The notes beneath the pieces were generated by a model. That model saw only the letters and a list, made by a program, of their open reading frames with translations, made no database searches and had not been told where the DNA came from. A DNA stretch of 51,886 bases, the filler included, from Candidatus Omnitrophota bacterium (GTDB lineage: Bacteria > Omnitrophota > Gorgyraeia > Zapsychrales > JBDRMG01), in assembly GCA_043812495.1 (NCBI GenBank). It is 3 parts of 3 records of this genome, joined end to end, with 100 filler letters (N's around TTAATTAATTAA, not from the genome) between each part and the next. Parts side by side here need not be neighbours in the genome. Positions count along the whole stretch, not along the records: positions 1 to 18,958 come from JBDRMG010000059.1; 2 more parts are not named here. One strand, written 5' to 3'. Position 1 is the first letter of the stretch. Every line of letters begins with the position of its first letter. Position numbers and translations under genes: made by a program. Below, piece by piece: positions 1,632 through 20,131 of this stretch.

Positions 1632-1738
1632 ATTTAGTGGCTCGTGTTCGTCGTTGTGATTCCTTGTGTATTTAGATACGCATCCTCGGAAAGTGACGAG
1701 AAATTCCACGCCACCACATTCAGTTTACTTAATCGCGA

Positions 1739-3249: not shown

Positions 3250-3483
3250 CTAAAGCATGCGGTTTTCTTTGAGAACATTTTCCACTTCGCTGATGGCACT
3301 CTTCAATTGCTCAAGAAGGTGAATATTGATGGAAATGCCCTTGGCTGTGGCGACCATTTCATCTGACCCCTGAGTCATGGTCCAGGTCCTAATATCAATC
3401 AAGTCATTTCCCTTGTACTCACGAATGCCTACGCGAATCTCCTGGAATTTGTTCTTTTTGAATGTCTTGATGGTCTTGTCCAT
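3250..3483 (-). CDS. PC4/YdbC-family ssDNA-binding protein
   Basis: EIRVGIREYKG...IDIRTW...KGISI pattern; GGAG RBS. Confidence 0.85.
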   Translation of the reverse strand: MDKTIKTFKKNKFQEIRVGIREYKGNDLIDIRTWTMTQGSDEMVATAKGISINIHLLEQLKSAISEVENVLKENRML

Positions 3484-3506
3484 AGGCTCGCTCCTTACTT
3501 TGCGCT

Positions 3507-3884
3507 TTAAAAGTTTCGTATGATATTGGCCATGATCGCTCGGGCTAAATTGACGTTGGGAATGAGATTCCTGCGAGCGGCCACGCGAATATCAATGGTC
3601 TTTTCCGTTAATTTAGAAATGGTGACTTTGACATCATGATCGTTGACGGTCGCTTTAATTTCACCGAGCTTTTGATAATTTTCATCAACTTCTCCGATTT
3701 TTTTCAGTTGCGCATTGGCGACTTTCCATGCGTGGTTGAAATCCGTATCAATGGACGTGGTGGCATAATCGCTTGTGACGGCAACAACGCTGGCGGCCGT
3801 TACTCCGCCGACCACAACGGCCGTAGCGCAACCGCTTAAACCGATACTAACCACTGCTATAAAAATGAGAAAACGCGTCATCAT
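3507..3884 (-). CDS. Lipoprotein, DUF3568-like
   Basis: Signal peptide with lipobox LSGC, Gly/Ala/Val-rich segment, small alpha/beta domain. Confidence 0.7.
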   Translation of the reverse strand: MMTRFLIFIAVVSIGLSGCATAVVVGGVTAASVVAVTSDYATTSIDTDFNHAWKVANAQLKKIGEVDENYQKLGEIKATVNDHDVKVTISKLTEKTIDIRVAARRNLIPNVNLARAIMANIIRNF

Positions 3885-3888
3885 GATT

Positions 3889-4662
3889 TTATTTCGCTTG
3901 TTTTTGTTGATAGTCAATGACAGGCTTTGTCCAAGGTGTCTGTTGATTGATCACCGCCAACTCTAGCGGACAAGCATTCGCCGGAACCGACAAAGCAAAC
4001 ATCACCATATCCACAACCGTTTCCGGCTTCATGAGTCTTTCCATCTGTTCTTGCGTGATGTCTTTGAGTTTTCCGGTCAATTCCGTATCCACAACACCCG
4101 GCAAAATCGATGTCACCTTAATCCCATGGTCTCTCATTTCCCAGAATAAACCTTTTAAGAACGCGCGCAAGCCGACTTTCAGCGAACTGTAAGTAATAAA
4201 ATTTTTCGGCAAAGGATCGCACAAAGTCGAGCCGGAAACCATATTAATAATCGCACCGCTTTTTCGCTCAATCATATGCGGGATCACCAACCGAATCAAT
4301 CGCACATATCCTAAATAATTTGTGTGCGCCAAGCGCTCGATATCTTCGAGCGGCTGTTTTTCAAAGGGATATTGACTGGAGACACCTGCATTATTGATCA
4401 GAATATCGATGGTTTTAAATTCCTTGAGCGCTGTTTCGGTGAGTTTTTGTAAATCTTCTAACTTGCTCACATCTGTCGGTAAGCCAATCACCTTGACCGA
4501 ATACTTGTTCTTAATCTCTTTTACGGCCTGATCCAATGTATCTTTTGTCCGCGCAGCCAAAATGATGTTTGCGCCATGCTCCGCCAGCTTCATGGCAATC
4601 GCTTTTCCGATGCCTTTGCTGGCTCCCGTGATAATCGCGTTTTTTCCTTTAAGATGGGACAT
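3889..4662 (-). CDS. SDR family oxidoreductase (possible ketoreductase)
   Basis: TGASKGIG, NNAG, YSSLK (YxxxK), PGVVDT. Confidence 0.92.
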   Translation of the reverse strand: MSHLKGKNAIITGASKGIGKAIAMKLAEHGANIILAARTKDTLDQAVKEIKNKYSVKVIGLPTDVSKLEDLQKLTETALKEFKTIDILINNAGVSSQYPFEKQPLEDIERLAHTNYLGYVRLIRLVIPHMIERKSGAIINMVSGSTLCDPLPKNFITYSSLKVGLRAFLKGLFWEMRDHGIKVTSILPGVVDTELTGKLKDITQEQMERLMKPETVVDMVMFALSVPANACPLELAVINQQTPWTKPVIDYQQKQAK

Positions 4663-4675
4663 CCAACCCTCCGTT

Positions 4676-4765
4676 CAATGAGCACACAAGTTACGTGACC
4701 GTAAGGGAACGTAACTTATCGGTGCGAATTGACCCAGCCCACCATTGATTCAGTGGCGGGCTGGG
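4676..4765 (+). repeat. Structured palindromic repeat, family A, copy 1
   Basis: AATGA-GCAC..AAGTTACG-TGACCGTAAGGGAA-CGTAACTT..GTGC-GAATTGACC, then hairpin CCCAGCCC..GGGCTGGG. Same architecture as 18229-18332 and 19245-19389. Confidence 0.7.
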
Positions 4766-4792
4766 ATAGAACAAATACAATTTAATACTTCC

Positions 4793-5938
4793 TTAATTTG
4801 TTTTAGTCAAAGTTTCCGGAATCACCTTCTTCGCAAAAAACGACAACGTCAGCATCAGAAGACCGATTCCCAGGAAAGTTAATTGAAAGTTCTTCTCAAC
4901 AAAAAGGCCGGCCAAAAAGAATCCGATGCCTCCGCTTAAAAATCGTATAGACGAATTCAGACTGGCGATTTCGGGACGGTATTCATCCGAAAAATCCGTT
5001 AGGACCGTTGACACACCGTTATGGCCAATGGTCCATCCGATAGAAAAAACAATCAAAATAACAGATAAAACCGCCAAAGGAAATACACCGGATAAAAGCA
5101 TTGTCGCCGCAGCCAATAACATGATCCCCAAATAACACGCCTTGACGCGTCCTTTTTTATCGGCCATGTAACCTCCGATATTTTGCCCCATGGCCCCTCC
5201 GATCGTCATGAGAAGAAATAGAAAGCTGATCGTCCATTGATCAAAATGATAAATGCGGCTCAGGTATACACCTAGCCATTTATGAATACCATGATAAAAT
5301 AAACTGATCGCAAAAATAAAGAGAAAGACATTGCGGACCGTCTCGTTTCTGATGACCTTCCCATAGTCGATGCTTCGGCCATGCTTTATTTTTATAGTTT
5401 CAAATTTAAAAAAGAATGTCAGCAGGGTAATCATGGCCGCAAGCAAAGCAGGAATCAAGAATAACCACCGCCAATTGGCTAAACCGCTTAAAAGAATACC
5501 AGCCAATGAGGAAACAAAAGCGCTGCTGAATAATATTCCGACCAAACGGCCTCTAACCTCTTTTTCAAAAGTCCTGCCTATAAGAATGAGCCCCAGGGGA
5601 ATTATGCTCCCACCGGATAGGCCCATTATAACTCTTGAACACAGGAATTGTCCAAGGGAATTCACAAAGGCACAATTCAGGCTGGAAAGGGCAAAAATGG
5701 CCATGGAACCCCCGACTATTTTACGGAAAATTATTTTCTCAGCTAATGGCGCGTACATAAGCGCACCTAACCCATAGGGAATCATATAGTAAGGTAGAAT
5801 TTTTGAGACTTGAATATCGGAAAGATTCAAATCGAGGCTGATCGTCGGAATAGCCGCGGCGATGGCCGCCACGTTAAACGAAATCGTAACGCTGCCTAAA
5901 CATAGTAATATAAATATTAATCTTTTTTCTTTAATCAC
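4793..5938 (-). CDS. MFS transporter (DHA1-like exporter)
   Basis: About 12 hydrophobic segments, GYMADKKGR motif A-like, NWRWLF. Confidence 0.9.
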   Translation of the reverse strand: MIKEKRLIFILLCLGSVTISFNVAAIAAAIPTISLDLNLSDIQVSKILPYYMIPYGLGALMYAPLAEKIIFRKIVGGSMAIFALSSLNCAFVNSLGQFLCSRVIMGLSGGSIIPLGLILIGRTFEKEVRGRLVGILFSSAFVSSLAGILLSGLANWRWLFLIPALLAAMITLLTFFFKFETIKIKHGRSIDYGKVIRNETVRNVFLFIFAISLFYHGIHKWLGVYLSRIYHFDQWTISFLFLLMTIGGAMGQNIGGYMADKKGRVKACYLGIMLLAAATMLLSGVFPLAVLSVILIVFSIGWTIGHNGVSTVLTDFSDEYRPEIASLNSSIRFLSGGIGFFLAGLFVEKNFQLTFLGIGLLMLTLSFFAKKVIPETLTKTN

Positions 5939-6019
5939 AAATTACAATTTTAAGAAATTTTAATATTAAGATTAATATATATATTACTTCTAATCGGCTT
6001 CTTTTTCAATAACCTTTTT

Positions 6020-6151
6020 GCCGACATTTTCTTGGTGCATTTTTGTGGAAGTCGGCATCTCCCGACGCTTGATAAGACTTGGTCGGGATGCCGACTGAGC
6101 TACAAACGAGCGTCGGCACCGACCCCCGACTTTCAGTCGGGGCATCGGGAC
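6020..6151. repeat. Nested CCGAC/GTCGG palindromic element overlapping the cyclase 3' end
   Basis: GTCGGCATC..GATGCCGAC and CCCCGAC-TTTCA-GTCGGGG hairpins. GCCGAC-N18/19-RTGGAAGTCGGCA is shared with 7071-7107. Confidence 0.6.
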
Positions 6152-6594
6152 ATGTCAGATTCCTTTTCAATAACTTTCTTGAAAATCTTGAGATTGTCTT
6201 GCGAATGCTTGTTGATAAATCCCACAATTTGCTCATCAGTGAATTTTTTAAACTTGGGATCCATCTCGAAGTCCTGTATCCACGTCATTAAAATTCCGTC
6301 TTCTACGAGCGTATAAAGCCATATGATTTTCATATATTTAAAAGGAAATGTCGGCTCGTTTTTTTGCGCGTAGGCCAGCATGTTTTCTTTAAAAAGCATG
6401 CGATGCGATGTCCACGAATTTCCTTCATTATCCGTGAGGCGAAAATCGATGCGCCTGCCTTCTTTCTTGAGAACCTCGGCTTTAACGTACTCATCGCCGA
6501 ATAATTCGGTCCATCGTTCGATGTGATTAGATGTGTCATAAACATTATCGTAAGGCGCGTTAATAATTATTGAGTTTCTTGTATGGCCCATCAT
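6133..6594 (-). CDS. SRPBCC/START-fold polyketide aromatase/cyclase (TcmN-like, monodomain)
   Basis: GHTRNSIIINAP...W.ELF..EY...FRLT...SWTSHR...WIQDF, the pattern of type II PKS aromatases. Confidence 0.9.
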   Translation of the reverse strand: MMGHTRNSIIINAPYDNVYDTSNHIERWTELFGDEYVKAEVLKKEGRRIDFRLTDNEGNSWTSHRMLFKENMLAYAQKNEPTFPFKYMKIIWLYTLVEDGILMTWIQDFEMDPKFKKFTDEQIVGFINKHSQDNLKIFKKVIEKESDMSRCPD

Positions 6595-6623
6595 ATCCCT
6601 CCTGTTCTATTTTTTATTTAGAG

Positions 6624-7031
6624 TCACTCTTCTTTAACGACCTTTATTGTGCAATCTATTAAATATGAATAACTAAGTATGATCCCACCTGAAATTTGCA
6701 ACATGATCATTATCATTCGAAAATAGTTCAGCGTTGACATGTAAGCAACGAGTGGGTAAGCCTTAATATACATGGATGACATTTCGTATAATTGTTTTTC
6801 ATAATTCGTTCTTAATTTATTTTCTAGACCGTCAAGGACACTTTGATTGGCAATATTTTCATTATTTATTTGTATAAGGGAAGGAAATATTCTCTCAATT
6901 TTTTTCTTTGTGTTAGATGCTAAATAAAATTGCACAAGTAATGGTATGATCAGCAACGATCCACCTAAAATTTTCATTATTGGAATCATTTTATTCAATG
7001 ATTCTATGTATTTTCCATGCTTTTCATCCAT
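6624..7031 (-). CDS. Hypothetical AT-rich membrane protein
   Basis: GAGGAGG RBS, two hydrophobic segments, visibly lower GC than neighbours. Confidence 0.65.
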   Translation of the reverse strand: MDEKHGKYIESLNKMIPIMKILGGSLLIIPLLVQFYLASNTKKKIERIFPSLIQINNENIANQSVLDGLENKLRTNYEKQLYEMSSMYIKAYPLVAYMSTLNYFRMIMIMLQISGGIILSYSYLIDCTIKVVKEE

Positions 7032-7153
7032 CTAAATCCTCCTCGCACAAATAACTGCAACCACTCAACCGCCGACTGTCCTTTAATTTATATTATGGAA
7101 GTCGGCACTCCCTCGCTCGACTTTGTCGAGCTCGGTCGCCACCCAGCCCCTGT

Positions 7154-7957
7154 TTATTCTATAATTGCTACTACCCTCGCCCAGCCAGCTCCTGCATTCT
7201 TAACCTTAACTGGCAGGCATGAAACTTTAAAACCAAACGGCTTGGGAATGGCACCGAGATTACCTATTCTCTCCATGTGCGCAAATTCGCGCTTGCGGCC
7301 CAAAAAATGTGACGGCCATATTTTGGATTTATCGCGTGTGGCCAAAAATTCTTTGAACATATCAAAGCATGGGCGGTCCAAGCCGATGGTATCAACCCCC
7401 AACATTTTTACACCTTGATCCAGAATATATTCAACCGCATCCGGCATCATGCCGACGTATTTGTTGACATAATCGTCGGTTCCCAAAAGTTTATCACCAC
7501 CCGTATAAATCAAAACGATGTCCATGGGTTTGAGCGTATAGCGGATAGCGGATAGCGCTTTAATGACATCGCCTTTTTTGATCACATCCGGATACTTCAT
7601 GTGGGTAAAATTCAAAACCACACCGTCGCCTACGCACCATTCAAGTGGAAGGTCTTCGATGCGTTTACTGGGCTTTCCTTCGGATTGGCTGCCGTAATGA
7701 TACGGGGCGTCGACATGCGAACCCATATGAACCGAGGAATGCACAATTTCAAGGGCCAGCATTTCTCCGTCGGGAATTTCTTCGGGTTTGACAATTCGTT
7801 CGCCTTTTTCGAATCGTTCCAGTCCACCGGGTTGATTTTTCATGACCACCCAGTTGAAATGCTCAACGCCATCGGCATGAGATATTCGATCGATCTTGGC
7901 CGCATGGGTTTCTTTTAGAGTATCGTCGATTGGTAAGCTTAGGTCTATTATTTTCAT
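7154..7957 (-). CDS. Cyclase family protein (kynurenine formamidase-like fold, polyketide ring cyclase type)
   Basis: IIDLS N-terminus, HMGSHVDAPYH metal motif, GVDT, HMER, GWARVVA. Confidence 0.9.
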   Translation of the reverse strand: MKIIDLSLPIDDTLKETHAAKIDRISHADGVEHFNWVVMKNQPGGLERFEKGERIVKPEEIPDGEMLALEIVHSSVHMGSHVDAPYHYGSQSEGKPSKRIEDLPLEWCVGDGVVLNFTHMKYPDVIKKGDVIKALSAIRYTLKPMDIVLIYTGGDKLLGTDDYVNKYVGMMPDAVEYILDQGVKMLGVDTIGLDRPCFDMFKEFLATRDKSKIWPSHFLGRKREFAHMERIGNLGAIPKPFGFKVSCLPVKVKNAGAGWARVVAIIE

Positions 7958-7963
7958 TTTCAA

Positions 7964-8046
7964 GCTTTCAGCTATCAGACATCAGCTTTCAGCAGGTATC
8001 AGCTTTCTTTATTTCTTTCTTATAGCTGACAGCTGAGGACTGAGGG
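7964..8046. repeat. Heptamer tandem repeats with inverted counterpart
   Basis: AGCTTTC-AGCTATC-AGACATC-AGCTTTC, then GCTGACA-GCTGAGG-ACTGAGG. Confidence 0.7.
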
Positions 8047-8047
8047 C

Positions 8048-8284
8048 TTAATTGGCTCCATTTGATTTTAAGAATTCAATAATCTCATTGAGGGATTGCG
8101 TCTTCTTGATATCACTACTTGCCATATCCAAGCCGAATTCTTTTTTAATCGCAACGGCAATCTCGACCATTTCCGTTGAATCGATCCCTAAAGATTGATC
8201 AAGTTTTTCCGCCAGCTTGATTTCTTCGGGCTTAATATCCAAAACATTCTTGAATACCCCTTTGACTTTTTCTTCGATGCTCAC
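8048..8284 (-). CDS. Acyl carrier protein
   Basis: 78 aa, LGIDSTEMVE phosphopantetheine site, directly after KS-CLF. Confidence 0.95.
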   Translation of the reverse strand: MSIEEKVKGVFKNVLDIKPEEIKLAEKLDQSLGIDSTEMVEIAVAIKKEFGLDMASSDIKKTQSLNEIIEFLKSNGAN

Positions 8285-8307
8285 GTTTAACCACCCTTTC
8301 TAAGAAT

Positions 8308-8377
8308 TGTGTCACGTGTTATGTGTTAAGTGTTAGGTTAAAGCGCTTGACACTTAAAACTTGAAACTTAAAACTTG
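8308..8377. repeat. Heptamer tandem repeats with inverted counterpart
   Basis: GTGTCAC-GTGTTAT-GTGTTAA-GTGTTAG, then CTTGACA-CTTAAAA-CTTGAAA-CTTAAAA. Confidence 0.7.
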
Positions 8378-8378
8378 T

Positions 8379-9611
8379 TTATGCCTTCTCAAGGACCATC
8401 GCGCAATTGATTCCGCCGCGTCCGCGATTAATCACAAGCGCTCTGTTGATTTCCTTCACTTGGGCTTTATTCGGACAATAATCTAAATCGCATTCCGGAT
8501 CCGGATGTTCATAGTTAATCGTCGGCGGAACTAATCCATGTTCCATCGCTAATAATGTAATGATAATATCCACGACACCCGATGCCCCTAAAAGATTTCC
8601 GAACATGGATTTAGGTGCCGATACTGGAATCTTTTTTGCACGATCGCCGAAAACCTGCTTAATCGCCTTGGTCTCCGAGGCATCACCGATCACTGTGGCT
8701 ACGCCATCCGCGCAAATATAATCGATTTGCGCCGGAGCAATTTCTGCATCGTCCAAAGCCATTTGTATGGCGCGCGCCAGTTCTTTTCCATCATGAGCCG
8801 GTTCAATACGATCAACTGCATCTGTTGTTGTCCCGTACCCGGCGACATATCCATAGATCTTGGGATTACGCTCTTTGATCCTCTGTTCATTTTCCAAAAT
8901 TAACATGCCTGATCCTTCGGCAATCGGAAATCCATCGTGTGTTTTGTCAAACGGACGATACGCTTTATCCGGTTCATCATTATTTTTAGTTAAAACTCCG
9001 GACGTATTGCAGCACAAAAGCGCATAGGGTGTTACGGGCGCTTCCATGCCGCCGGCAATAATAAAATCATCTTTTCCATTAATCAATGTTTTGGAGCCAT
9101 AGGCGATCGCCATGAGAGAACTTGCGCGGTCCGAAACAACCGTCTTGCTGTATCCTTTGATTCCGTAATGAATGGAAACCTGTCCTTGCGGCGCGGCCGG
9201 AAACCAGGCCGAGGCCATAAAGGGACTAACGCCCTCTCGGCCTTCGAGATAAAGATCGCGTAATTCTGTTTCGGCATACAACCATCCGCCGATGGCATTG
9301 CCCATAAAAATGCCGCAGCGTTTTAAATTTTCTTTGGATAAATCCAAATTCGCATCTTTAATGGCCAATTCACTTGCCACAAGCGCCAGATGAGAAAACA
9401 CGTCAATCTTTTTCAAAAGTCTCGACGAGACATGGCTGTAGGCGTCCAGTTCCTTGACTTGCCCGGCTATTCGCGATGGGTAGAGGGATGCATCAAATCG
9501 CTCAATTTTGCTCACGACCGAGTGCCCGGCTTTGATATTGGCCCAGAAAACACGTTTGTCAATTCCGCTTGGATTAACGGTTCCGATTCCTGTAATGGCT
9601 ACTCTTTTCAT
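8379..9611 (-). CDS. Type II PKS chain length factor (KSbeta)
   Basis: KS fold with CLF hallmarks VSPFMASAWFPAAPQGQVSI, ADGVAT (no His), PKSMFG, RGRGG. The catalytic Cys position reads SDRASS. Confidence 0.9.
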   Translation of the reverse strand: MKRVAITGIGTVNPSGIDKRVFWANIKAGHSVVSKIERFDASLYPSRIAGQVKELDAYSHVSSRLLKKIDVFSHLALVASELAIKDANLDLSKENLKRCGIFMGNAIGGWLYAETELRDLYLEGREGVSPFMASAWFPAAPQGQVSIHYGIKGYSKTVVSDRASSLMAIAYGSKTLINGKDDFIIAGGMEAPVTPYALLCCNTSGVLTKNNDEPDKAYRPFDKTHDGFPIAEGSGMLILENEQRIKERNPKIYGYVAGYGTTTDAVDRIEPAHDGKELARAIQMALDDAEIAPAQIDYICADGVATVIGDASETKAIKQVFGDRAKKIPVSAPKSMFGNLLGASGVVDIIITLLAMEHGLVPPTINYEHPDPECDLDYCPNKAQVKEINRALVINRGRGGINCAMVLEKA

Positions 9612-10874
9612 TTATCCCTCGTATCGTTTTAATACCATTGATGAATGAACACCGGAAAAACCGCTCGATGTTTTGAGCATGCAATGCACCTTCTTTTCTC
9701 GAGCAACATTGGGCACATAATCCAAATCGCATTGCGGATCCGGTTCTTCCTGGTTGATGGTCGGCGGTAAAATATTGCGCTCAAAAATCAATGCAGCAAC
9801 GGCAAGCTCTACCCCATTAGCTCCCGCGAGCGGATGACCAATCATCGATTTTAAAGAACTGATGGGAATTTTGTAAGCATAATCCCCTAAGGACATCTTA
9901 TAGGCGTTTGTTTCAAATACATCGTTTTGGCGCGTAGAGGAACCGTGCGCATTGATGTAATCAATGTCTTGAGGTTTAATACCGGCATCGTTCATGGCTA
10001 AAATAATACTGTCGCTCATCGCGTCACCGTCAGCCGGTAAATCCGTCATATGAAAGGCATTGCAGGTGGTGCCAAAACCAATGATTTCACAGTAAATGCG
10101 TGCCCCGCGCTTAAGGGCATGCTGAAGTTCTTCTAAAACAAGAATGCCACAGCCTTCGGAAATGACAAAACCATTGCGTTGATTATCAAACGGACGCGAC
10201 GCTTTTTCCGGCTCGTGATTTCTTGTGGCCAGGACACTCACCACGTCAAACGCCCCGAAGGTAATCGGCGTGATCGGGGCTTCGCTTGCGCCGGCCAGCA
10301 TAATATCGATTTCCCCTTCCTGGATGGCTTCAAAAGCAAAACCCACCGAATCCGTTCCGGCCGTACAACCCGTCGAGATCGTATTGCAGATTCCTTTGAG
10401 CCCGTATTTGGCCGAAATTTCACTCGATGGTGTGTTGAACATGGAGGCGTCATACAAATCCGGACGGACCATAGACGGGTCAATCGGTTTTTTGCCGCTG
10501 TCGGTGACAAGGGCAAATTCTTCTTCCATGTATTTTGTTCCGCAAATCGCGTTGGCTAAAGAAATGCCCATACGCTCTTTATCGATTTTATTCAAGTCCA
10601 TCTTCGAATCTTCCAAAGCGATTTTGGCACCCACCATGGCAAACTGCACATAACGATCCATGCGGATCGCCTCGTTCTTCGTCAAACCCAACTTAAGGGG
10701 ATCGAAATCGCGCGCCTGCGCGGCAATCTGCGTGTTGAACATCGAAACATCGAATTCTGTCACACGTTTGACGGCCGAAACGCCGTTGATCATTCCTTTC
10801 CAGCAGGCTTCATTCCCGACGCCATTGGGAGAAATCACTCCCGTACCTGTCACGACTACTCTTCTTTTTCTCAT
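9612..10874 (-). CDS. Type II PKS ketosynthase alpha
   Basis: STGCTAGTDSVG (KSalpha-type Cys motif), EAPITPIT, NAHGSSTRQND, KSMIGH, SGFSG. Abuts the CLF gene. Confidence 0.93.
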   Translation of the reverse strand: MRKRRVVVTGTGVISPNGVGNEACWKGMINGVSAVKRVTEFDVSMFNTQIAAQARDFDPLKLGLTKNEAIRMDRYVQFAMVGAKIALEDSKMDLNKIDKERMGISLANAICGTKYMEEEFALVTDSGKKPIDPSMVRPDLYDASMFNTPSSEISAKYGLKGICNTISTGCTAGTDSVGFAFEAIQEGEIDIMLAGASEAPITPITFGAFDVVSVLATRNHEPEKASRPFDNQRNGFVISEGCGILVLEELQHALKRGARIYCEIIGFGTTCNAFHMTDLPADGDAMSDSIILAMNDAGIKPQDIDYINAHGSSTRQNDVFETNAYKMSLGDYAYKIPISSLKSMIGHPLAGANGVELAVAALIFERNILPPTINQEEPDPQCDLDYVPNVAREKKVHCMLKTSSGFSGVHSSMVLKRYEG

Positions 10875-10886
10875 AGTGTCACCCTT

Positions 10887-11882
10887 CTAAACAAGATTAA
10901 ACTCTTTTTTGATCTCTTCTTTATCGATAAACCGCCCCGTGTTTTCCACTTGATGGACAAGATCAACGATCCTTCGATTCAAAGGGGCCTGCGAGCTGAC
11001 ATGCTTGGAGAGTAAATCAATTTCTCCGTTGATATAATCGACCTCGCTTGTTTTTTTGCGCTTGATGCTCTGCAAAATAGAACCGTACAAAGGTTCTTGA
11101 CTCAAGCCAGTCAGGGTTTTATGAATAATGCCGGCGGCCTGATCCATAGGCATGGAGACCAATCCTTCGATACGTTCCCGCGGAAAATCCGGCAAAGACA
11201 CAAGCTGAATGCCTGCTCTTTGCGTGATGGCATAACCTTCTTTAAGAAGCATTATGCTTAAGCGGCACAAATCCAAATCCGAAAAAGTTTCCTGCATGGA
11301 TAGGCCGGTAAGGGCCGGCAGACAATTGTTAAAATTGACAAAGAGCTTGAGCCATTTCATCCCCATGATGTCATCGGAGATAACCACGTCAAACGCCTGA
11401 CCTAAAACCTTCGCGACCTCTTCTAAGATGGAGTCATTGACCGTAAAGGGCCGGCCCATAATCCATTTTCCGTCAAAATTATATGTGATTCGGCCGGGCT
11501 CGATATAAGTCGCGCCAAACATCACGATACTTGAGATCATCTTCTCTTTTTCAAAATGCATGCCGAGAATATTATCCGCCTGCACACCGTTTTGCGTGGT
11601 CAGGCAAATCGTGTGATCGCAATATTCATTATTGTCCCTGTAGGCCTTTTCCAGATCCTGCGTCTTGACGGCAAAGATCGTCAAGTCGTGTTCTTTTTCT
11701 AACCTTTCATCCGTCTTGAGTTTTACATTTTCTTTTCTGATTCCGGCAATGGACAAACCTCGGTCTTTGATCGCCCGGACTTGGTCGGCTCGGCCGATCA
11801 ACGTCACATCATGTCCTGCCTTCGATAAATAAGCCGCGATGATGGAACCAATTGCGCCTGCGCCAATCACAGCAATCGTCAT
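10887..11882 (-). CDS. Ketopantoate reductase (PanE/ApbA) family protein
   Basis: IGAGAIG, AVKTQD, QNG, WLKLFVN, SILQS, SEVDYING. Start at MTIAVIG. Confidence 0.88.
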   Translation of the reverse strand: MTIAVIGAGAIGSIIAAYLSKAGHDVTLIGRADQVRAIKDRGLSIAGIRKENVKLKTDERLEKEHDLTIFAVKTQDLEKAYRDNNEYCDHTICLTTQNGVQADNILGMHFEKEKMISSIVMFGATYIEPGRITYNFDGKWIMGRPFTVNDSILEEVAKVLGQAFDVVISDDIMGMKWLKLFVNFNNCLPALTGLSMQETFSDLDLCRLSIMLLKEGYAITQRAGIQLVSLPDFPRERIEGLVSMPMDQAAGIIHKTLTGLSQEPLYGSILQSIKRKKTSEVDYINGEIDLLSKHVSSQAPLNRRIVDLVHQVENTGRFIDKEEIKKEFNLV

Positions 11883-11895
11883 TTTATCTTTTTCT

Positions 11896-12180
11896 TTATT
11901 GAGAGGGTTCATATTTCTTATAATCAAATCCCACATCACCCAAAAGCTTAATCATCAAACTGTAAAATGCGGGCGGCACTTCCGAATAGAAAGCCTTCAT
12001 AATATCCTGCTCTTCAACGCATTTTGACTGCCGTTCCTGCGCGTTCACTTCGGCGCCCTTCACGACGACTTTATAAGCAATCTGTCGATGAAAAAGTGGA
12101 ATACGTTCAATCAGCGCGTTGAATTTTTCTAAGGCTTCTTTTTCCCATTCCATCTGCATCTGTGTTTGTGGATTAGACAT
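11896..12180 (-). CDS. PCP-reductase/DUF2621-like small protein
   Basis: WEKEA...RIPLFHR...AE..A.ER...V pattern. Overlaps the radical SAM stop. Confidence 0.65.
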   Translation of the reverse strand: MSNPQTQMQMEWEKEALEKFNALIERIPLFHRQIAYKVVVKGAEVNAQERQSKCVEEQDIMKAFYSEVPPAFYSLMIKLLGDVGFDYKKYEPSQ

Positions 12181-13645
12181 AGCTTTGTTCTCCCGCGCTT
12201 GCAGCGGCAAATTTTGAAAGGTTATTCATAAAATCTTTAACGCACAGTTTGACCAACTGGTCGTAATCGCTTTCCATGATTCGGTGAATCCTCTCGGGTT
12301 GTGAATAAAATTCGCGCATGCACCAACTTCCCAGGCGGCCCACTTCTTCGATAGATAAATAATTAGTTGGGATCACGGGATGATGAAAATCCCAATCCTT
12401 AATATTGATATGGTTCGGATCGATCCATCCTTTTTCGACCGATTGATTCCATAATTGAGAACCGGGAACGGGTGTCACGTAATCGAGGGCCATGATGTCC
12501 GGGTCCACATCATTAGCGACGTCCAATCGTTTTTTGATGGTAGCCTCATCGTCATCCTCAAGGCCGATCAAAACGGTTCCCACTGATGATATATTAGCTT
12601 CGCGAAGAGCTTTGACGGTCCCTTTGATTTGCGCAAGCGTTACGCCTTTTCCCTGTTTGGCCAATTGTTCATCGCTTTCCACTTCAATACCGACGAGGCC
12701 CATAAACAGGCCCGATTCATACATGAGCGGCAGTATTTCTTTATGAGCCAGCCAATCATCCGCGCGGCCCAGGCAGACCCATTTGATTTTGTTGCCGCGT
12801 TTAATCTTTAATTCGCAAAATCTTTTAACATTTTCTTTATCGACATTAAAAGCATCGTCTTGAATCACAACGACCTTGACGCCGTATGTTTTCTCCAAAA
12901 GATCCAGTTCGTCCAGTATTTTTTCTGCGGATTTACCCCGCCAGGAAATATAATCCTCCTTGCTGTTTCTTTGATCATACAAACTCCATTGATAACAAAA
13001 TGTGCACGCGCCGGGGCAGCCACGCGAGGTCAGCAATTCGGCAAAGGGTTTCCAGTAGGTGTGGCCCACATATTTATCCATCGGAAAAAGGTCATAGGCC
13101 GGCATAGGTAAATCATTTAAATTGGCCATGGGGCAGCGGTGCGGGCCCATCACGATGGACCCTTTGGAATCGCGCAAAACAAGCCCGGCAATTTTTGAAA
13201 AATCATCCGACCCGCTTTTAAGAGCATTAACTAAATCTGAAATCGTCAGCTCCCCTTCCCCCATCGCAATAAAATCAATTGGGGGATTTTGCTCTAATGT
13301 TTCTTTGCAATAGGCTGAATACCAAAGCCCGCCCATAATCACTTTTGTCTTTGGAAGAATATTTTTAATCTTTTTGGCGGTTTCATTAAAATGCCAAATC
13401 ACAGATAACCCACCCGTTGAATGCAAAAGATCGCCAAACACACAAAGATCCGGTTTGATCTCTTTGATTTGTTTTATCATTTCATCACTTGAGATCCCCA
13501 AGGCTTTAGCATCCATCACCTGCACTTCGGCAATCTTTTTCTCCCGTAAATAGGCGGCCACCTGCGCATAATATTGATTGGGGGCTTTGTGATCGCCGTG
13601 TGTGGCCCATGAACCCATGGGTGGTGTAATAAATAAAACTTTCAT
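12173..13645 (-). CDS. Cobalamin-binding radical SAM enzyme (BchE-like architecture)
   Basis: N-terminal B12-binding-like domain (MGG, GEGE), SRGCPGACTFC CxxxCxxC motif, TPVPGS. GGAG RBS before ATG 13645. Confidence 0.92.
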   Translation of the reverse strand: MKVLFITPPMGSWATHGDHKAPNQYYAQVAAYLREKKIAEVQVMDAKALGISSDEMIKQIKEIKPDLCVFGDLLHSTGGLSVIWHFNETAKKIKNILPKTKVIMGGLWYSAYCKETLEQNPPIDFIAMGEGELTISDLVNALKSGSDDFSKIAGLVLRDSKGSIVMGPHRCPMANLNDLPMPAYDLFPMDKYVGHTYWKPFAELLTSRGCPGACTFCYQWSLYDQRNSKEDYISWRGKSAEKILDELDLLEKTYGVKVVVIQDDAFNVDKENVKRFCELKIKRGNKIKWVCLGRADDWLAHKEILPLMYESGLFMGLVGIEVESDEQLAKQGKGVTLAQIKGTVKALREANISSVGTVLIGLEDDDEATIKKRLDVANDVDPDIMALDYVTPVPGSQLWNQSVEKGWIDPNHINIKDWDFHHPVIPTNYLSIEEVGRLGSWCMREFYSQPERIHRIMESDYDQLVKLCVKDFMNNLSKFAAASAGEQSYV

Positions 13646-13661
13646 TTCTTTCTCCATTTTT

Positions 13662-14207
13662 TTACTTTTCTGGATATTGTCCTTCAAAATCACCATTATT
13701 TCTGTTGAACACATCTATATAAAATTTACACACGGCTGGGTCATCCTGCGGCATATGAAGATGAGAATCTTCTGTTGCTTTCTTCCATCGACCGTTTTCT
13801 TTTTCAAAGGATACCCATCCCTCAAAATTTTCTGTAAAAATTCCCATATCGTTTCTTCCGTATATAATGACCGCATTTTCTTCATTGGCCAAAACTTTCT
13901 TTATTACAATAGTATCTTCATTTCCTACATCGGCTAATCTTAACTCAAAGTTATTCCTGCTTTCTTCTTCTGAAACCATAGGTTGTTCATTATATAATTT
14001 ATCCGACTCTGCAAATTCCTTTAAATAACTAGCCGTATATCTTTTCTCTACTTCAGTAAATTCTTTCCAATTATTCGTAAGATTAATGTCTCTTAGGTAA
14101 GATCTAAACATATCTACAACTTCTTTTTGATTTTGATCATAATTTTCTTGAGCATAAATCAACATAGGTACCGTAAAGATCAAGATAAAAACAAGTAAAA
14201 TTCTCAT
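13662..14207 (-). CDS. Hypothetical secreted protein (AT-rich)
   Basis: AGGAGG RBS, signal peptide ending IYA|Q, EKENGRWK C-terminal motif. Confidence 0.75.
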   Translation of the reverse strand: MRILLVFILIFTVPMLIYAQENYDQNQKEVVDMFRSYLRDINLTNNWKEFTEVEKRYTASYLKEFAESDKLYNEQPMVSEEESRNNFELRLADVGNEDTIVIKKVLANEENAVIIYGRNDMGIFTENFEGWVSFEKENGRWKKATEDSHLHMPQDDPAVCKFYIDVFNRNNGDFEGQYPEK

Positions 14208-14275
14208 CTTTTCCTCCTAAAAAACTTGATAATATTTGTTATTACAAAAATAATGGCCGTTCTAGGGCTTTTTAG

Positions 14276-15772
14276 TCAGAACCAACCCGCGACCAAAGGT
14301 TTGCCGCCGGGCGTTTGGTCCGTGCAAATATGTTTGCATTGGGTGTATTCAAACAATCCGTCCATACCTAGTTCTCTTCCGAAACCGCTTTGTTTATATC
14401 CCCCGTAAGGGGCTTCGTTATAAAACCCGCCGTAGGTATTGATCCACACCGTGCCGCAGCGCAGCTGCCTCGCCACTCTCTTGGCTTTTTTCTGGTCTTT
14501 ACTCCATACACAAGCAGCTAAACCAAACTTCGTGTCATTGGCAATCTTGACGGCTTCGTCTTCCCGAGAAAACTTTATCACGCTTAAAACAGGGCCGAAT
14601 ATCTCTTCCTGGGCAATAGACATATCATTTTTGACATCGGCAAATATTGTCGGTTCGATATAATACCCCTGATTCATCCCCTCGGGAACATTTCCCCCGC
14701 AAAGAAGCTTGGCGCCTTCCTGTATTCCTTTCTCAATGTAAGTCAAAACTGTTTCCAATTGCTTTTTATTGGCAAGCGGCCCAAATTCCGTTTGATAATC
14801 AAGGGCATTACCGATTTTTAGCTTCTTAGTTTTCTCGCCTAAGGCATTTAAAAACTTCTCGTAAATACTTTCCTCTAAAAGCAATCTTGATCCGGCCGTG
14901 CACATCTGTCCCTGATTCATGAATATCGCCGAAAGAGTTCCGCCTAAAGCGGTCTCAAAATCGCAATCAGCAAACACAATATTCGGTGATTTTCCGCCAA
15001 GTTCCAGAGTCAACTTCTTTGTGTTTCCAGAGGCCAGACGCATGACGTCTTGTCCTGTTTCGGTCCCGCCTGTAAAGCTTATCTTATCAACCAGTTCGCT
15101 TTTGATGAGTTCGCTTGCAACGGCATGGTCTTTGATGGAAACAATGTTCAGGACGCCTTCCGGAAGACCGACGCCGGCTATTAACTTCGCCAAATACATT
15201 ATGGAGACGCTCGCTTGCGAAGACGGCTTAAAGATGACGGTATTGCCCGCAATCAAAGCCGGAGCCACTTTCCATGCAAACATGATTAGGGGATAATTCC
15301 ATGTGATGATCGCTCCCACGACTCCGATTGGTTCCCGTTCAGATATGCTTTCGACAGGTGCGGCCGCGCGGTTATTTTTTGATTCAAGTTCTTTAGAAAC
15401 TTTTCCGAAATAATCGAATGTCTCCGCGCATGTCGGCACATCGATGAAGGTTGTGTGCTTGATGGTCTTTCCGACGTCTTTGCTTTCGAGTTCGGCCAAT
15501 TCTTTCGCGTGATCTCGGATCGCTTTCGCTATTTGAATTAAATATTTTCCTCTCTCCTGAACGCTGAGCTTCGGCCAGTTACCGCAATCGAACGCCTTTC
15601 TTGCGGCAAGAATGGCGGATTTCATGTCTTCAAGCGAGGCATCAGCTACTTTTGCAAAAACTTCCTCGTTGGAAGGATTGATGCTGTCAAAATATTTACT
15701 CGTTGATGGCGCGACAAAGTGTCCATCGATCAATAAATCAAATTGTTGAATTTCTGTGTTTACGGGATTCAT
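14276..15772 (-). CDS. NAD(P)-dependent aldehyde dehydrogenase
   Basis: WNYP, FTGG, LELGGKSP, GQMCTAGSR, EEIFGPV, GGYKQSG. Confidence 0.97.
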   Translation of the reverse strand: MNPVNTEIQQFDLLIDGHFVAPSTSKYFDSINPSNEEVFAKVADASLEDMKSAILAARKAFDCGNWPKLSVQERGKYLIQIAKAIRDHAKELAELESKDVGKTIKHTTFIDVPTCAETFDYFGKVSKELESKNNRAAAPVESISEREPIGVVGAIITWNYPLIMFAWKVAPALIAGNTVIFKPSSQASVSIMYLAKLIAGVGLPEGVLNIVSIKDHAVASELIKSELVDKISFTGGTETGQDVMRLASGNTKKLTLELGGKSPNIVFADCDFETALGGTLSAIFMNQGQMCTAGSRLLLEESIYEKFLNALGEKTKKLKIGNALDYQTEFGPLANKKQLETVLTYIEKGIQEGAKLLCGGNVPEGMNQGYYIEPTIFADVKNDMSIAQEEIFGPVLSVIKFSREDEAVKIANDTKFGLAACVWSKDQKKAKRVARQLRCGTVWINTYGGFYNEAPYGGYKQSGFGRELGMDGLFEYTQCKHICTDQTPGGKPLVAGWF

Positions 15773-16768
15773 TTAATTCACCGGCACTTGCTGCCATAAT
15801 TCAAAAATGCGACTGCACGGTGCATACCATTTGGAAATCTTGGCAAAATCCCCGCGCAAGTCCATTTTCTTCTGGGTCGTGGCCACAAACGGATCGATTT
15901 CTCTATTGAAAACGGCACGCCAAATATCCTCGGACGCCGAAATCAAAAATTCTGCATTTTCATCTTTACCCACATCGACAATCCGGCCTTCCTTGAATTT
16001 AAAACTATGGATATTCCCCGATTCGTTCAACTTAACGGCCAAATCCATGGTCATCTGCGTTTTTTCTCCCAACTCTTTGAGCTGGGCATCGTTATTCACC
16101 AAGCGGACAATTTCATCAATCTGTTCTTTAGAGAAAAGATCATATTTCTTTAAGGCCTTTGCCTCTTGAGTTGATTGAAGATTTTGGCTTGTGCCCTCCT
16201 GGTAAAGCCGGCGAATGACATCGACTTTGATTGCCTCTTCCAGGCTTTGAATCAGAAGGAAGCATTCAAAAAGATTCTTTCCGGTCGCCACGGCCCCGTG
16301 ATTGCGCAAAACAGCGATATTCTTGTTTTTCATTGCCTGCAAGACGGGCCGAGCGTCTGTAACCGCCGGCGTCGTTTGAGGAACAGCGGTCATTTCCCCC
16401 AGATATAATTTTGATTCAAAAATCGCCGGAGACAATTTTTCGTTGGCGACAAAATAGCCGTTGATATAAACCGAATGCGTATGAATGATGGCCTGCGTAT
16501 CCTTGAAATTTCTATAGATTTCCGTATGGAGTAATTTTTCCGTGGAAACCTCTCCTTTTTCGATCAAGTTGCCGTCAAGATCCATCAGGATCAGGTCTTT
16601 TTCTTCTAAGCGGCCTAAGCAGGTGCCGTGCGCCGTTAAGAGAATAAGCTCTTCGTCCACCCGAACGCTGATGTTGCCGTTGAGGCCGGTCGCAAGATCC
16701 TTATTCCAAAGAAGACGGCCGATCTCGATGATTTCCTGTTTACATTTCTTCACTTTGGCCTTATTCAT
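15773..16768 (-). CDS. Class II aldolase/adducin domain fused to a C-terminal SCP2 lipid-binding-like domain
   Basis: GNISVR, STE..LH, HTHS, LRNHG. C-terminal ~110 aa read AEFLISAS...IDPFVATTQKKMDLRGD (SCP2-like). GAGGTG RBS. Confidence 0.85.
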   Translation of the reverse strand: MNKAKVKKCKQEIIEIGRLLWNKDLATGLNGNISVRVDEELILLTAHGTCLGRLEEKDLILMDLDGNLIEKGEVSTEKLLHTEIYRNFKDTQAIIHTHSVYINGYFVANEKLSPAIFESKLYLGEMTAVPQTTPAVTDARPVLQAMKNKNIAVLRNHGAVATGKNLFECFLLIQSLEEAIKVDVIRRLYQEGTSQNLQSTQEAKALKKYDLFSKEQIDEIVRLVNNDAQLKELGEKTQMTMDLAVKLNESGNIHSFKFKEGRIVDVGKDENAEFLISASEDIWRAVFNREIDPFVATTQKKMDLRGDFAKISKWYAPCSRIFELWQQVPVN

Positions 16769-17247
16769 TTGACCACCTCGGTAATATATTTTGCCGGGAC
16801 CCATTCCACAAGCGGAACAAATCCCTTAATTCCTTTGGGAGCAATGCGCTTATTTTTGAAATTCACTATGTCTTTTTGCGTGCCAAAAAATTTAGTCGTG
16901 CGGCATGACGGATAAAGTCTAACAGGTATTTTATGTTTCCTGCTCATAATGGCCAAGATGAGCGCTCCGACATCGCACAAAGCCCCTTGGCGGCTCACAA
17001 GCTGATAAGCAATCCAAATTTCTTTCACGCAATCTTTGTAAAACAGAAAACCAGCTGAATTATCAGAGATAAGAATTGGTTTGATTCTTTCTTTTAACAA
17101 AGACTTGGCGTTTTTTTGGGCCGCTTCAAGCGTAGGCCGTCCTTCACAAATGACAACGGATTTTGCCTTTTTCTTTTTCAAAAGATCAAAAAACGCTTTT
17201 TGTGGAATTCCCTGCAAAATAATGGCAGATTTCTTTTTAATGCACAT
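16765..17247 (-). CDS. Short eIF-2B/MtnA C-terminal-domain paralog, probably non-catalytic
   Basis: EGRP, ISDNSAG, G..ILAI...HKIPV and EWVPAKYI mirror the MtnA C-domain. It lacks THCN and the GADR/ANKIG motifs. Confidence 0.65.
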   Translation of the reverse strand: MCIKKKSAIILQGIPQKAFFDLLKKKKAKSVVICEGRPTLEAAQKNAKSLLKERIKPILISDNSAGFLFYKDCVKEIWIAYQLVSRQGALCDVGALILAIMSRKHKIPVRLYPSCRTTKFFGTQKDIVNFKNKRIAPKGIKGFVPLVEWVPAKYITEVVK

Positions 17248-18205
17248 TGATTGGTATCGTTTCCTTAATGAATTTGTTCGGGACAACATCAAAGCCTGGA
17301 TAAAATCCGTCGGTTCCTTTTGGAGCAATTCTTTGTCCTTCATAAACTAATAATTCTTTGGGATTACGGACTTCTATGGGGATATCGCTTCCCTTTTTAA
17401 TTTTTGTGGATGGCTGGGTGAGTACATACATAGGAACACCAAACTCTTTAGCGCACACAGCGATGGGAAGAGTTCCGATTTTATTGGCAATATCACCGTT
17501 GGCGCAGGAACGATCAGATCCAACAATCACCAAATCAATTATTTGATCGCTCAAAAGCGTTCCGACGGCATTGTCTGCCACAAGCGTCACATCTACGCCA
17601 ACTTTCTGCAATTCCCAGCATGTGAGTTTGGCTCCTTGAAAATAGGGTCGCGTCTCCGTGGCAAAGTAATGAACCTTCTTTTTCTTACTTTTACATATTG
17701 CTGCCGCCATCGCGAGCTCGCCGCTTACATTGCAATGCGTGAGAACCGTATCCCCGTTTTTGATGAGACTGGCGATTTTCTGAACGCGCTGGATGCGTCT
17801 TTCATAAATGCCGTGCAAAAAGCCCTGAATATTCTTTGAAAGATATGTCCGCAAATTAACATTTTGATCGATAGCTTTCTTCGCCCACCCTAAAACCATC
17901 CCCGTCACTTCAGAAAAAGGAAATGTCGGCCGGCTGGCGTTTAATGCCTCGGCGGTTTCCTGCAGTTTGCCGAACAGCTTCTGATCCGGGCACTTCTTAC
18001 AATTCTTTAGTACAAGCAAGAATGTATTCATAACCACCAAAAACTGGCCAAAGGCCCGCGTGCGCATATCCTTAATCACAGCTACGGCCTGCTTGGTGTT
18101 TCTGACTTTAATGAAATGAAATTTGGCCGGCAATAATGTTTCGTCTAAAACCAGCATAGTTTGGTTTTTTAACTTTACAGGCCAAAATAAGGGCGATACT
18201 TTCAT
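17237..18205 (-). CDS. MtnA-like ribose-1-phosphate-derivative isomerase (eIF-2B family), divergent
   Basis: SRPT, THCN, ETRP, VGSDR..ANGDIANKIGT, IPIEVR, FDVVP. The canonical RGAPAIG reads RAFGQ. Confidence 0.88.
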   Translation of the reverse strand: MKVSPLFWPVKLKNQTMLVLDETLLPAKFHFIKVRNTKQAVAVIKDMRTRAFGQFLVVMNTFLLVLKNCKKCPDQKLFGKLQETAEALNASRPTFPFSEVTGMVLGWAKKAIDQNVNLRTYLSKNIQGFLHGIYERRIQRVQKIASLIKNGDTVLTHCNVSGELAMAAAICKSKKKKVHYFATETRPYFQGAKLTCWELQKVGVDVTLVADNAVGTLLSDQIIDLVIVGSDRSCANGDIANKIGTLPIAVCAKEFGVPMYVLTQPSTKIKKGSDIPIEVRNPKELLVYEGQRIAPKGTDGFYPGFDVVPNKFIKETIPINVH

Positions 18206-18228
18206 AAAAATATTCCTATCAAATTTTT

Positions 18229-18332
18229 GGCCCCGCCTCTTGCTTTCGCAAAAAAGCGGCGGGGTAAATTCCGACAGACAACTTACGTCATGCGGCCTTC
18301 GGCCGCAATCCGTAAGTTGTCTGTCGTCATTT
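18229..18332 (-). repeat. Structured palindromic repeat, family A, copy 2
   Basis: Minus strand: AATGACGACAGACAACTTACGGA-TTGCGGCCGAAGGCCGCA-TGACGTAAGTTGTCTGTCGGAATTTACCCCGCC..GGCGGGGCC. Confidence 0.75.
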
Positions 18333-18352
18333 ACAAAATAACGGTGATTCTT

Positions 18353-18958
18353 TCAGCAACCTTTTCCTTCAAGCTTCTTAATTAACCCCAGGGCAATCCC
18401 GATCATGGCGGATTCGGCCATATAATAATCCGGATTCATAAAACCCATTTCTCCGGTGATCACATTGTCGCTCACCGCTAAAATCGCTGTGGCTTTGACC
18501 TTGTAGAGTTTGGCAATCGTCAAGAAAGTCGATGTGACCATATCGACGGCAATGGCGCCTTGGTCAATAGCCTTTTGCACATGCTCTCTAGTTTCACGCA
18601 AAAGCGCGTCGGTTGACCATACTTTTCCTTTGTGAACATTTAGTCCTGAGCCTTTGGCTACTTCCGCAAGTTGGTTTGTTAATTCATTATCCGAAGTTGT
18701 TTCAAATTTCTCATCCACATAATACGGAGTTACACCATCGCCGCGCAGAGCGCTATCGATAACAATTAAATCACCCACTTTGATCTCTTCGCTTAAGGCA
18801 CCGCAACTTCCCAGGCGGATCATATTCTTAGCCTCGGCATTGCAGAGAATTTCTGTAGTGATCGCGGTATCCGCAGAAAAACGCCCGCCGTTAATAGCTG
18901 TCACCTTTATTCCTGCGAGTGTTCCCGTATACATCGTATATTCCATAAAGGAAAAATT
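18353..18958 (-). CDS. Nucleoside phosphorylase (PNP/UDP family 1), 5'-truncated by contig end
   Basis: IRLGSCGAL, GD..I...A.RGDGVT, WSTDA, AVDM, AVSD. The frame is open to the gap. Confidence 0.9.
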   Translation of the reverse strand, partial: NFSFMEYTMYTGTLAGIKVTAINGGRFSADTAITTEILCNAEAKNMIRLGSCGALSEEIKVGDLIVIDSALRGDGVTPYYVDEKFETTSDNELTNQLAEVAKGSGLNVHKGKVWSTDALLRETREHVQKAIDQGAIAVDMVTSTFLTIAKLYKVKATAILAVSDNVITGEMGFMNPDYYMAESAMIGIALGLIKKLEGKGC

Positions 18959-20110: not shown

Positions 20111-20131
20111 TTTCGCTACCCGTAATTCACT

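Follow-up and report, generated by a model that had tools for sequence, protein, structure and literature searches.

In the fluoroacetate route of Streptomyces cattleya, 5'-X-adenosine is converted to X-acetate by a phosphorylase, an isomerase, an aldolase and an aldehyde dehydrogenase (ALDH). The enzyme pairs HpnH/HpnG and MqnE/MqnB add a 5'-deoxyadenosyl radical to a hydrophobic or aromatic acceptor and then remove the base; HpnH and MqnE are not known to have a B12-binding domain, and those routes keep or cyclise the ribose. Here we describe a gene cluster of a Candidatus Omnitrophota bacterium (assembly GCA_043812495.1, our genome G000) in which a polyketide synthase (PKS) of type II stands together with a B12-domain radical S-adenosylmethionine (SAM) enzyme, a nucleoside block (phosphorylase, isomerase, aldolase and ALDH) and, very probably, an AMP-forming ligase. 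The whole stretch of DNA analysed, called the window, has 51,886 nucleotides and consists of three contigs joined by N linkers; the cluster lies on contig C59, at window positions 1-18958. Two other described systems resemble parts of it. The dihydroxyacetone phosphate (DHAP) shunt (MtnP or Pfs/MtnK, MtnA and Ald2; DrdK/I/A) has the phosphorylase, the isomerase and the class II aldolase in common with it, and turns 5'-X-adenosine into base, DHAP and the aldehyde X-CH2-CHO, as set out in parts of PMC10986504. The den (dendrubin), ant (AQ-256) and clr (clostrubin) clusters, which excerpts of PMC7693217 treat as ancestral non-actinobacterial type II PKSs, share with it a ketosynthase (KS), a chain-length factor (CLF) plus an acyl carrier protein (ACP), TcmN- and OxyN-type cyclases and a reductase.

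The Omnitrophota locus differs from each of these systems. Unlike den, ant and clr, it has a single-domain TcmN protein and an Arg or Lys in the CLF, a decarboxylase, the radical SAM gene, the nucleoside block and a terminal ligase are added, and its distribution is near-core and nested in contrast to that of a patchy antibiotic cluster. Compared with the DHAP shunt, the phosphorylase is of the hexameric type and not MTAP, the isomerase has lost a loop and is joined by a truncated extra isomerase, the aldolase is fused to an SCP2 domain, an ALDH and a ligase follow downstream, and separate canonical enzymes exist. There is no fluorinase as in S. cattleya, and for X we predict a large carbon group, installed by radical chemistry. 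Relative to HpnH/HpnG and MqnE/MqnB, the ribose would be cut to two carbons and the acceptor would be a polyketide. We found no description of an Omnitrophota PKS-radical SAM-nucleoside cluster in the literature, with most subscription journals outside the search and with a supplement of PMC10132072 that may list these CLFs. Excerpts of that paper name the Omnitrophica among the phyla with KS-CLF pairs and do not discuss the cluster itself, parts of a Cariaco preprint mention Omnitrophota clusters, none with the cluster described here, and the word "polyketide" is absent from the main text of the phylum-wide Omnitrophota papers checked. The cluster is a real and undescribed pathway, conserved, linked to PadR and lineage-wide in the Omnitrophota.

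We propose a mechanism to which, taken in full, we give about an even chance. The type II PKS would build an aromatic core, which the amidohydrolase may decarboxylate, and this core would receive a 5'-deoxyadenosyl group through the action of the radical SAM enzyme, X being the polyketide. The phosphorylase, isomerase, aldolase and ALDH would trim the adenosyl group to a -CH2-COOH arm, an ALDH being the enzyme that turns X-CH2-CHO into X-CH2-COOH. The ligase would activate the resulting aryl-CH2-COOH acid as the last step, and the thioester may end on an envelope lipid or a similar carrier. In relatives that have no PKS, a transporter is predicted to import the core or the finished acid. The sequence-only reading had offered adenosylation and trimming of the polyketide as one of three options; it fits best of the three, once the ligase is added at its end.

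All 15 genes named in that reading were found on the minus strand and in the order given there, many of them overlapping or abutting, and Pfam and NCBIfam profiles, against which the labels were checked, agree. We compared the order in 21 GTDB loci and 41 metagenome loci of at least 9 kb. It is near-identical in most of the GTDB loci and is conserved in the metagenome loci too; this conservation is not chance. Among 401 genomes of the phylum, including G000, a CLF ortholog is found in 121, the ligase in 141 and the aldolase in 149 (132 full fusions, two of them split in two pieces, and 17 partial matches), and about one third of the sampled genomes carry the cluster. The proposed synteny of the block with the PKS holds up, with fusion and CLF together in 117 genomes, the fusion only in 15, the CLF only in 4 and neither in 265. 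The four genomes with a CLF and no fusion are fragmented, have no transporter of the kind discussed below and retain either a radical SAM gene or the cluster's MtnA. The ligase is present in 116 of the 121 CLF-positive genomes, and the radical SAM family in 117 of the 120 CLF-bearing relatives besides G000, sometimes relocated or with as many as four copies. Several families have the CLF as a near-core gene (49/60 in f21, 14/15 in f7, 9/10 in f27 and 5/5 in f2), including genomes of 1.0-1.4 Mb, while it is absent from many others. Outside these, PKS module, radical SAM gene and aldolase fusion also occur in a MAG (metagenome-assembled genome) labelled Syntrophaceae. A distribution that is near-core and nested rather than patchy suggests a housekeeping product, and the earlier framing as a natural-product cluster loses ground accordingly.

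The PKS module has the features of an aromatic type II enzyme. An active KS-alpha (9612..10874; ketoacyl-synt) with a Cys-His-His triad, whose top PDB matches, 1tqy_A (actinorhodin KS-alpha) and 6smo_B, outrank FabF, lies beside a catalytically dead paralog, the CLF (8379..9611; ketoacyl-synt), and an ACP with a DST motif (8048..8284; PP-binding). The aromatase/cyclase genes encode a KynB/OxyN-type cyclase (7154..7963; PF04199, Cyclase) and a single-domain TcmN-type aromatase/cyclase (6133..6594; Polyketide_cyc; TcmN at E 1.6e-26, the WhiE type next). Judged by these genes the PKS likely makes an aromatic polyketide core. The CLF is nearer to FabF than to the act CLF, and in excerpts of PMC10132072 the non-actinobacterial CLF clade is likewise nearer FabF. 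Neither a dehydratase nor an enoyl reductase was found in the operon.

Two further genes lie between the radical SAM gene and the KS-alpha gene. The PanE/ApbA-family reductase (10887..11939; ApbA), the sole copy found in G000, may serve in 2-oxoacid reduction or CoA supply. For the small PCP_red-like protein (11896..12210), the earlier label is supported by the Atlas DUF2621/PCP_red clusters, in which we placed it with the ortholog of L018, the Syntrophaceae locus, as query; the Pfam match to DUF2621 is weak and below cut-off. We considered it as a partner of the radical SAM enzyme and rejected this, since it travels with the PKS module and not with the radical SAM gene. Relatives show additional genes in this region that are absent from G000. 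Many tier 1 loci, as defined below, have a tandem TIGR04076 protein between PanE and KS (e.g. L019:13300-13935), and the 548-aa PanE of L077 may be a fusion with it. A second SRPBCC/START protein is found between the PCP_red-like gene and PanE in many relatives (e.g. L019:11701-12198), and an aldehyde:ferredoxin oxidoreductase lies within the PKS block of the Syntrophaceae-labelled MAG (L018:1883-3784).

The cluster is lost in nested steps. Tier 1 genomes have PKS, radical SAM gene, block and ligase. Seven genomes form tier 2 (G195, G301, G278, G365, G217, G244 and G214), with the radical SAM gene, the block, the ligase and an MMPL/LolA-like/DUF1302 transporter; they have no CLF, no TcmN cyclase and no KS-alpha ortholog, their best KS matches being at the FabF level of 43-46%. 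G247 is a partial eighth member. Tier 3 is made up of 12 genomes with ligase and transporter and at most remnants of the block (G283, G009, G240, G380, G371, G245, G335, G332, G222, G269, G300 and G011, the last 72% complete). Five families contain both PKS-bearing and PKS-less states, and the tier 2 and 3 ligases are scattered at several places among those of tier 1 in a FastTree phylogeny. One metagenome locus, L199, is a decaying cluster that retains PadR, ligase, aldolase and the MFS gene. Because auxotrophs shed the fronts of pathways and keep the last step and a transporter, we read the order as PKS, then radical SAM enzyme and trimming block, then ligase, and we regard this order as probable.

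The same pattern bears on a starter-unit route, the second option of the sequence-only reading, here taken to mean that the radical SAM enzyme and the block make a small unusual acid which the ligase loads to prime the KS-CLF. Ligase and block come first in the operon, and ligase-primed type II PKSs exist (aurachin). Moreover, the active-site position of the CLF holds Arg or Lys in 32 of 33 rows, the remaining row being a KS control, where the Gln of the actinobacterial type, whose role we take to be priming, would be expected. But block and ligase persist in the 7 tier 2 genomes, and the ligase in 12 more, without orthologs of KS-alpha, CLF or cyclase, and the opposite loss that a starter route predicts, with PKS, ligase and transporter kept and radical SAM gene and block lost, is seen in 0 of 121 CLF-positive genomes. 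We consider a starter-unit route unlikely.

The transporter of the PKS-less relatives comprises an HAE3/MMPL pump, a LolA-like carrier and a DUF1302 barrel. Of the 149 genomes with ligase or fusion, 120 are CLF-positive, and 7 of these have it; of the 29 CLF-negative ones, 22 do. It was found in 0 of the 251 genomes without any pathway gene; five weak DUF1302 matches (at most 34% identity) were dropped from this tally as non-orthologs. Related genomes not being independent, the P value of this contrast is given no weight here. Two of the 22 CLF-negative carriers, G175 and G226, retain other genes of the PKS module, and their missing CLF probably reflects assembly gaps. The set resembles AmeABCD and other DUF1302-DUF1329-RND systems, except that no BNR propeller gene was recognised in the PKS-less operons and that the transporter here stands in for a biosynthetic module. 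DUF1302 is predicted to be an outer-membrane barrel in parts of PMC13499233, and Pseudomonas putida needs DUF1302/DUF1329 for growth on fatty esters according to excerpts of 10.1101/2020.07.04.188060.

The radical SAM enzyme (12173..13714, probable start 13645, 490 aa; B12-binding and Radical_SAM) has an intact CxxxCxxC core and a B12-binding domain of 44 bits against a cut-off of 32.1, the domain make-up of a class B methylase. Its best NCBIfam models are BchE/HpnJ, with no family above cut-off. The predicted structure (pLDDT, predicted local distance difference test, 90.5) has AprD4 as top fold, with OxsB, MgmA, TsrM and TokK about equally close. The HpnH and MqnE profiles gave no match for this protein, and the family tests for HpnG and futalosine hydrolase stayed at 50 bits against a cut-off of 187 and 27.5 against 124.7, and the likeness to those routes lies in logic only. 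BtuB-like receptors scored below cut-off in 5 of 5 genomes. In G149, G103, G153, G254 and G356 there are three or four radical SAM paralogs each, some of them outside the cluster.

The block has the three shunt enzymes with their catalytic residues, in divergent form. The nucleoside phosphorylase (18353..18958; PF01048, PNP_UDP_1) is of the hexameric type, its 5' end cut by the contig end. The MtnA-like isomerase (17237..18205; IF-2B) keeps the catalytic Cys/Asp and the phosphate-binding Arg/Gln/Lys and has a 7-residue deletion after the catalytic Cys. The overlapping short MtnA paralog (16765..17343, probable start near 17247; PF01008 partial) has the C-terminal domain only; it is missing from many relatives, and we regard it as accessory. 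The aldolase-SCP2 fusion (15773..16804, probable start 16768; Aldolase_II and SCP2, the latter with 24.7 bits against a cut-off of 21.3) has the Glu and three zinc-binding His invariant; its model (pLDDT 92.9) is nearest in fold to FucA and to DrdA of Bacillus thuringiensis. Last comes the NAD-dependent ALDH (14276..15772; Aldedh).

MTAP (TIGR01694) is not among the matches listed for the cluster phosphorylase, and the isomerase scores 220 bits against the MtnA cut-off of 279. A canonical MtnA is encoded elsewhere in G000, and relatives have canonical copies above cut-off, all outside the cluster (MTAP in 10/10, MtnA in 5/5 and S-adenosylhomocysteine (SAH) hydrolase in 5/5); MTAP itself was not found in G000, which is 90% complete. 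The cluster enzymes are divergent paralogs and not the housekeeping salvage set. In the isomerase the spacing after the catalytic Cys is 29 residues in all 45 orthologs measured, versus 36 in the canonical MtnA of G000, and the deleted loop presumably lines the 5-substituent pocket, to judge by the Bacillus subtilis structure. The phosphorylase has DMV[ST] in place of EME in 40 of 41 orthologs read, and the N-terminal His of uridine/purine phosphorylases aligns to a Met; two phosphate-binding Arg are kept and one phosphate Arg is lost. We take the His to bind the 5'-OH, the EME Glu the ribose and the Arg the phosphate. Within the fusion, the SCP2 domain is more conserved than the catalytic domain (53% vs 46%). 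All 29 aldolases of radical-SAM-positive genomes have retained it, and 9 of the 12 of radical-SAM-negative genomes have lost it, a count that leaves out 4 aldolases.

These sequence features point to remodelled 5'-pockets in the cluster copies and, with SCP2, indicate a bulky hydrophobic X, in agreement with the earlier expectation drawn from the MtnA loop and the SCP2 fusion. Since such an X would come from the PKS or from import, radical 5'-deoxyadenosyl addition would be the simplest link between the modules. The third option of the earlier reading was plain clean-up of 5'-deoxyadenosine. In the form considered here, the radical SAM enzyme would work on the polyketide as a cobalamin-dependent methylase or as a rearranging enzyme, the block would only clear 5'-deoxyadenosine, yielding DHAP and acetate, and the ligase would have a separate task on a polyketide acid. 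The block is indeed kept and lost in step with the radical SAM gene, and G000 has no class II aldolase other than that of the cluster; where the whole cluster was lost, a bare aldolase, lacking SCP2, is left at the site, suggesting that ordinary salvage use is possible. However, because canonical MTAP, MtnA and SAH hydrolase are found elsewhere and the cluster pockets are remodelled (the isomerase loop deleted in 45/45, SCP2 tracking the radical SAM gene), and because the ligase is of the FadD/aryl type and not an acetate ligase, clean-up seems quite unlikely. SAH disposal was also considered as the role of the block and rejected, given the canonical SAH hydrolase elsewhere in 5/5.

Some relatives have other genes next to the block. 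An LsrF-type thiolase, above the NCBIfam cut-off, and a Zn-dependent dehydrogenase stand beside the aldolase or the ligase in L123 (7448-9273), L055, L061, L124, L129 and L136; they could form an alternative route for 5-deoxyribulose-1-phosphate, by oxidation and then cleavage to DHAP and acetyl-CoA. In L131-L133 and L061, from f22/f29 genomes, the cluster MtnA is immediately preceded by a class IV aminotransferase (PabC/IlvE-like).

It is also conceivable that the modules act in the same order with other chemistry. The radical SAM enzyme would then join or modify nucleoside and hydrophobic group by some other means, e.g. via sulfur or with an altered ribose, or act on an endogenous lipid, and export of the product to the outer membrane would be the task of the MMPL pump, comparable to that of HpnN for hopanoids. 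The DMV motif and the lost phosphate Arg would suit such a reaction, as would genomes with several radical SAM paralogs (as many as 4) and AmeABCD, the only characterised transporter of the MMPL/DUF1302 type, which is read as an exporter in parts of PMC6394551. Yet an exporter should be commonest in producers, and the tally is 7/120 in PKS-positive against 22/29 in PKS-negative genomes; the genomes with only ligase and transporter would have no pathway product to export. We judge this explanation improbable.

The ligase matches long-chain and aryl (FadD/aryl-type) CoA ligase models best, all below cut-off, and is not an acetate ligase. Its pocket motifs FGA and GWG(M/L) are present in 51 of 51 sequences, PKS-linked and PKS-less alike, and the FGA motif may resemble that of phenylacetate-CoA ligase. 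For the ALDH the best models are BADH and then phenylacetaldehyde dehydrogenase, again below cut-off, and non-acylating, oxidising families score far above the CoA-acylating model. The latter result speaks against running the pathway in the building direction, where the ligase would activate a polyketide acid; reduction to the aldehyde, condensation with DHAP, isomerisation and attachment of a base would then yield a polyketide-nucleoside hybrid. The reactions of aldolase, isomerase and phosphorylase can run both ways, and so can that of the aldehyde:ferredoxin oxidoreductase in the PKS block of one non-Omnitrophota locus (L018), but genomes with only the ligase would halt at the first step, and we hold this direction to be very unlikely.

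Several observations weigh against the adenosylation and trimming that we prefer. All sampled genomes are incomplete MAGs, and related ones are not independent. To our knowledge, no B12-domain radical SAM enzyme is known to adenosylate a substrate, and the fold, equally near to methylases and non-methylases, does not assign the reaction. In a quick tree a second paralog of G103 groups with the radical SAM enzymes from the PKS-less genomes in a subclade of their own, and the substrate of the PKS-less genomes' enzymes may differ. The change of EME to DMV removes a conserved ribose-binding Glu, of which our model gives no account, and the PanE-like and PCP_red-like genes are not explained by it. 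SCP2 is kept in the radical-SAM-negative genomes G300, G393 and G247, and the exporter role read for AmeABCD runs opposite to import. Finally, MqnA was not found in G000, and a replacement of menaquinone was rejected as a simple story, since 2 of 5 cluster-bearing genomes contain MenB.

As the sequence-only reading noted, the cluster is cut by the end of the contig; 18958 is a genuine contig end and the N block there is a linker. Another contig of G000, C1, ends with pyruvate kinase, PadR and the AMP-forming ligase, followed by the beginning of a second phosphorylase that shares 76% identity over 62 aa with the one in the window. As the operons of relatives open with the order PadR-ligase-phosphorylase, C1 is very probably the missing front of C59, with the junction itself unassembled. 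We found no bridge over the junction, only scattered pieces from two DNA runs with small shares. Tandem phosphorylases occur in 1 of 21 GTDB loci (L013) and in 0 of 41 long metagenome loci, and G000 likely has two phosphorylase paralogs, unassembled. The operon promoter sits on C1. Downstream of padR and before the ligase, 22 of 27 loci, from all tiers, have the same 16-bp palindrome behind a sigma-70-like promoter, a raw count without shuffle control that allows up to 2 mismatches. In L005 (3620-5941) ligase and phosphorylase form a single 773-aa ORF (open reading frame), by fusion or a lost stop codon, and in one genome a CrcB fluoride channel and DUF190 lie, once, directly upstream of the phosphorylase (L065:4563-5278). 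The GDSL and RlmN neighbours were taken as synteny and not as cluster members, since they are on another contig in G000.

The genes at the other end of the cluster encode an MFS transporter (4793..5938; MFS_1) and a short-chain reductase (3889..4662; adh_short), 72-85% conserved in close GTDB loci. The inventory of the sequence-only reading, sound for the genes it named, had missed the PC4 and amidohydrolase genes, two orphan ORFs, and the PadR and ligase genes outside the window. The amidohydrolase-2 gene (714..1709, minus strand, probable start 1631) is a conserved member of the aromatic-acid decarboxylase type, with LigW/ACMSD as best PDB matches. By Pfam and locus comparison, the DUF3568 lipoprotein gene (3507..3917, minus) is a variable neighbour and the PC4-like gene (3250..3483, minus) a conserved one that outlasts cluster loss; in the deletion scars L102-L107, from which the whole cluster has gone, a lipoprotein gene and PC4 are left next to a bare class II aldolase, and two of them retain an SRPBCC protein. 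The orphan ORFs (13662..14207 and 6624..7031, both minus) have no Pfam or NCBIfam match and are absent from related loci; they are insertions seen in G000 only, the former outside the conserved unit. A nucleotidyltransferase-fold gene with a weak AbiEii-type match (2560-3099, minus) is inserted between PC4 and the amidohydrolase.

The 5' part of a 16S rRNA gene occupies the contig's end (1-460, minus), so the ORF at 100-609 is spurious. A repeat scan of the window gave the KS/CLF paralogy and one intergenic hairpin, nothing else; an inverted repeat with 34-nt arms (18264-18334) lies between the phosphorylase and isomerase genes. Promoter (34 vs 37.0) and terminator (25 vs 21.8) scans of the window were at chance level. 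Genes for type II secretion/type IV pili and, after them, queD-queC-queE-queF (19436-31964, plus) lie on another contig and have no relation to the cluster.

We tentatively suggest, with somewhat less than even confidence, that in a large branch of the phylum the product is a housekeeping aromatic polyketide, which the B12-domain radical SAM enzyme C-adenosylates and repurposed salvage enzymes trim, with two carbons from the ribose of SAM serving as a carboxymethyl handle that anchors it to the envelope, and that cells exchange it as they do a vitamin, some being producers, others importers of the precursor or of the end product. If true, this would be a new biosynthetic use of SAM, with its ribose as donor of a two-carbon linker, and a new reaction for radical SAM enzymes with a B12 domain. 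The poorly understood DUF1302/DUF1329/MMPL transporters would gain a candidate cargo and a test of direction, and heterologous tests are practical because the genes are low-GC and compact. A type II polyketide would here be a core, shared metabolite instead of an antibiotic, pointing to an unrecognised lipid or cofactor in an abundant uncultured phylum with genomes down to 1.0 Mb.

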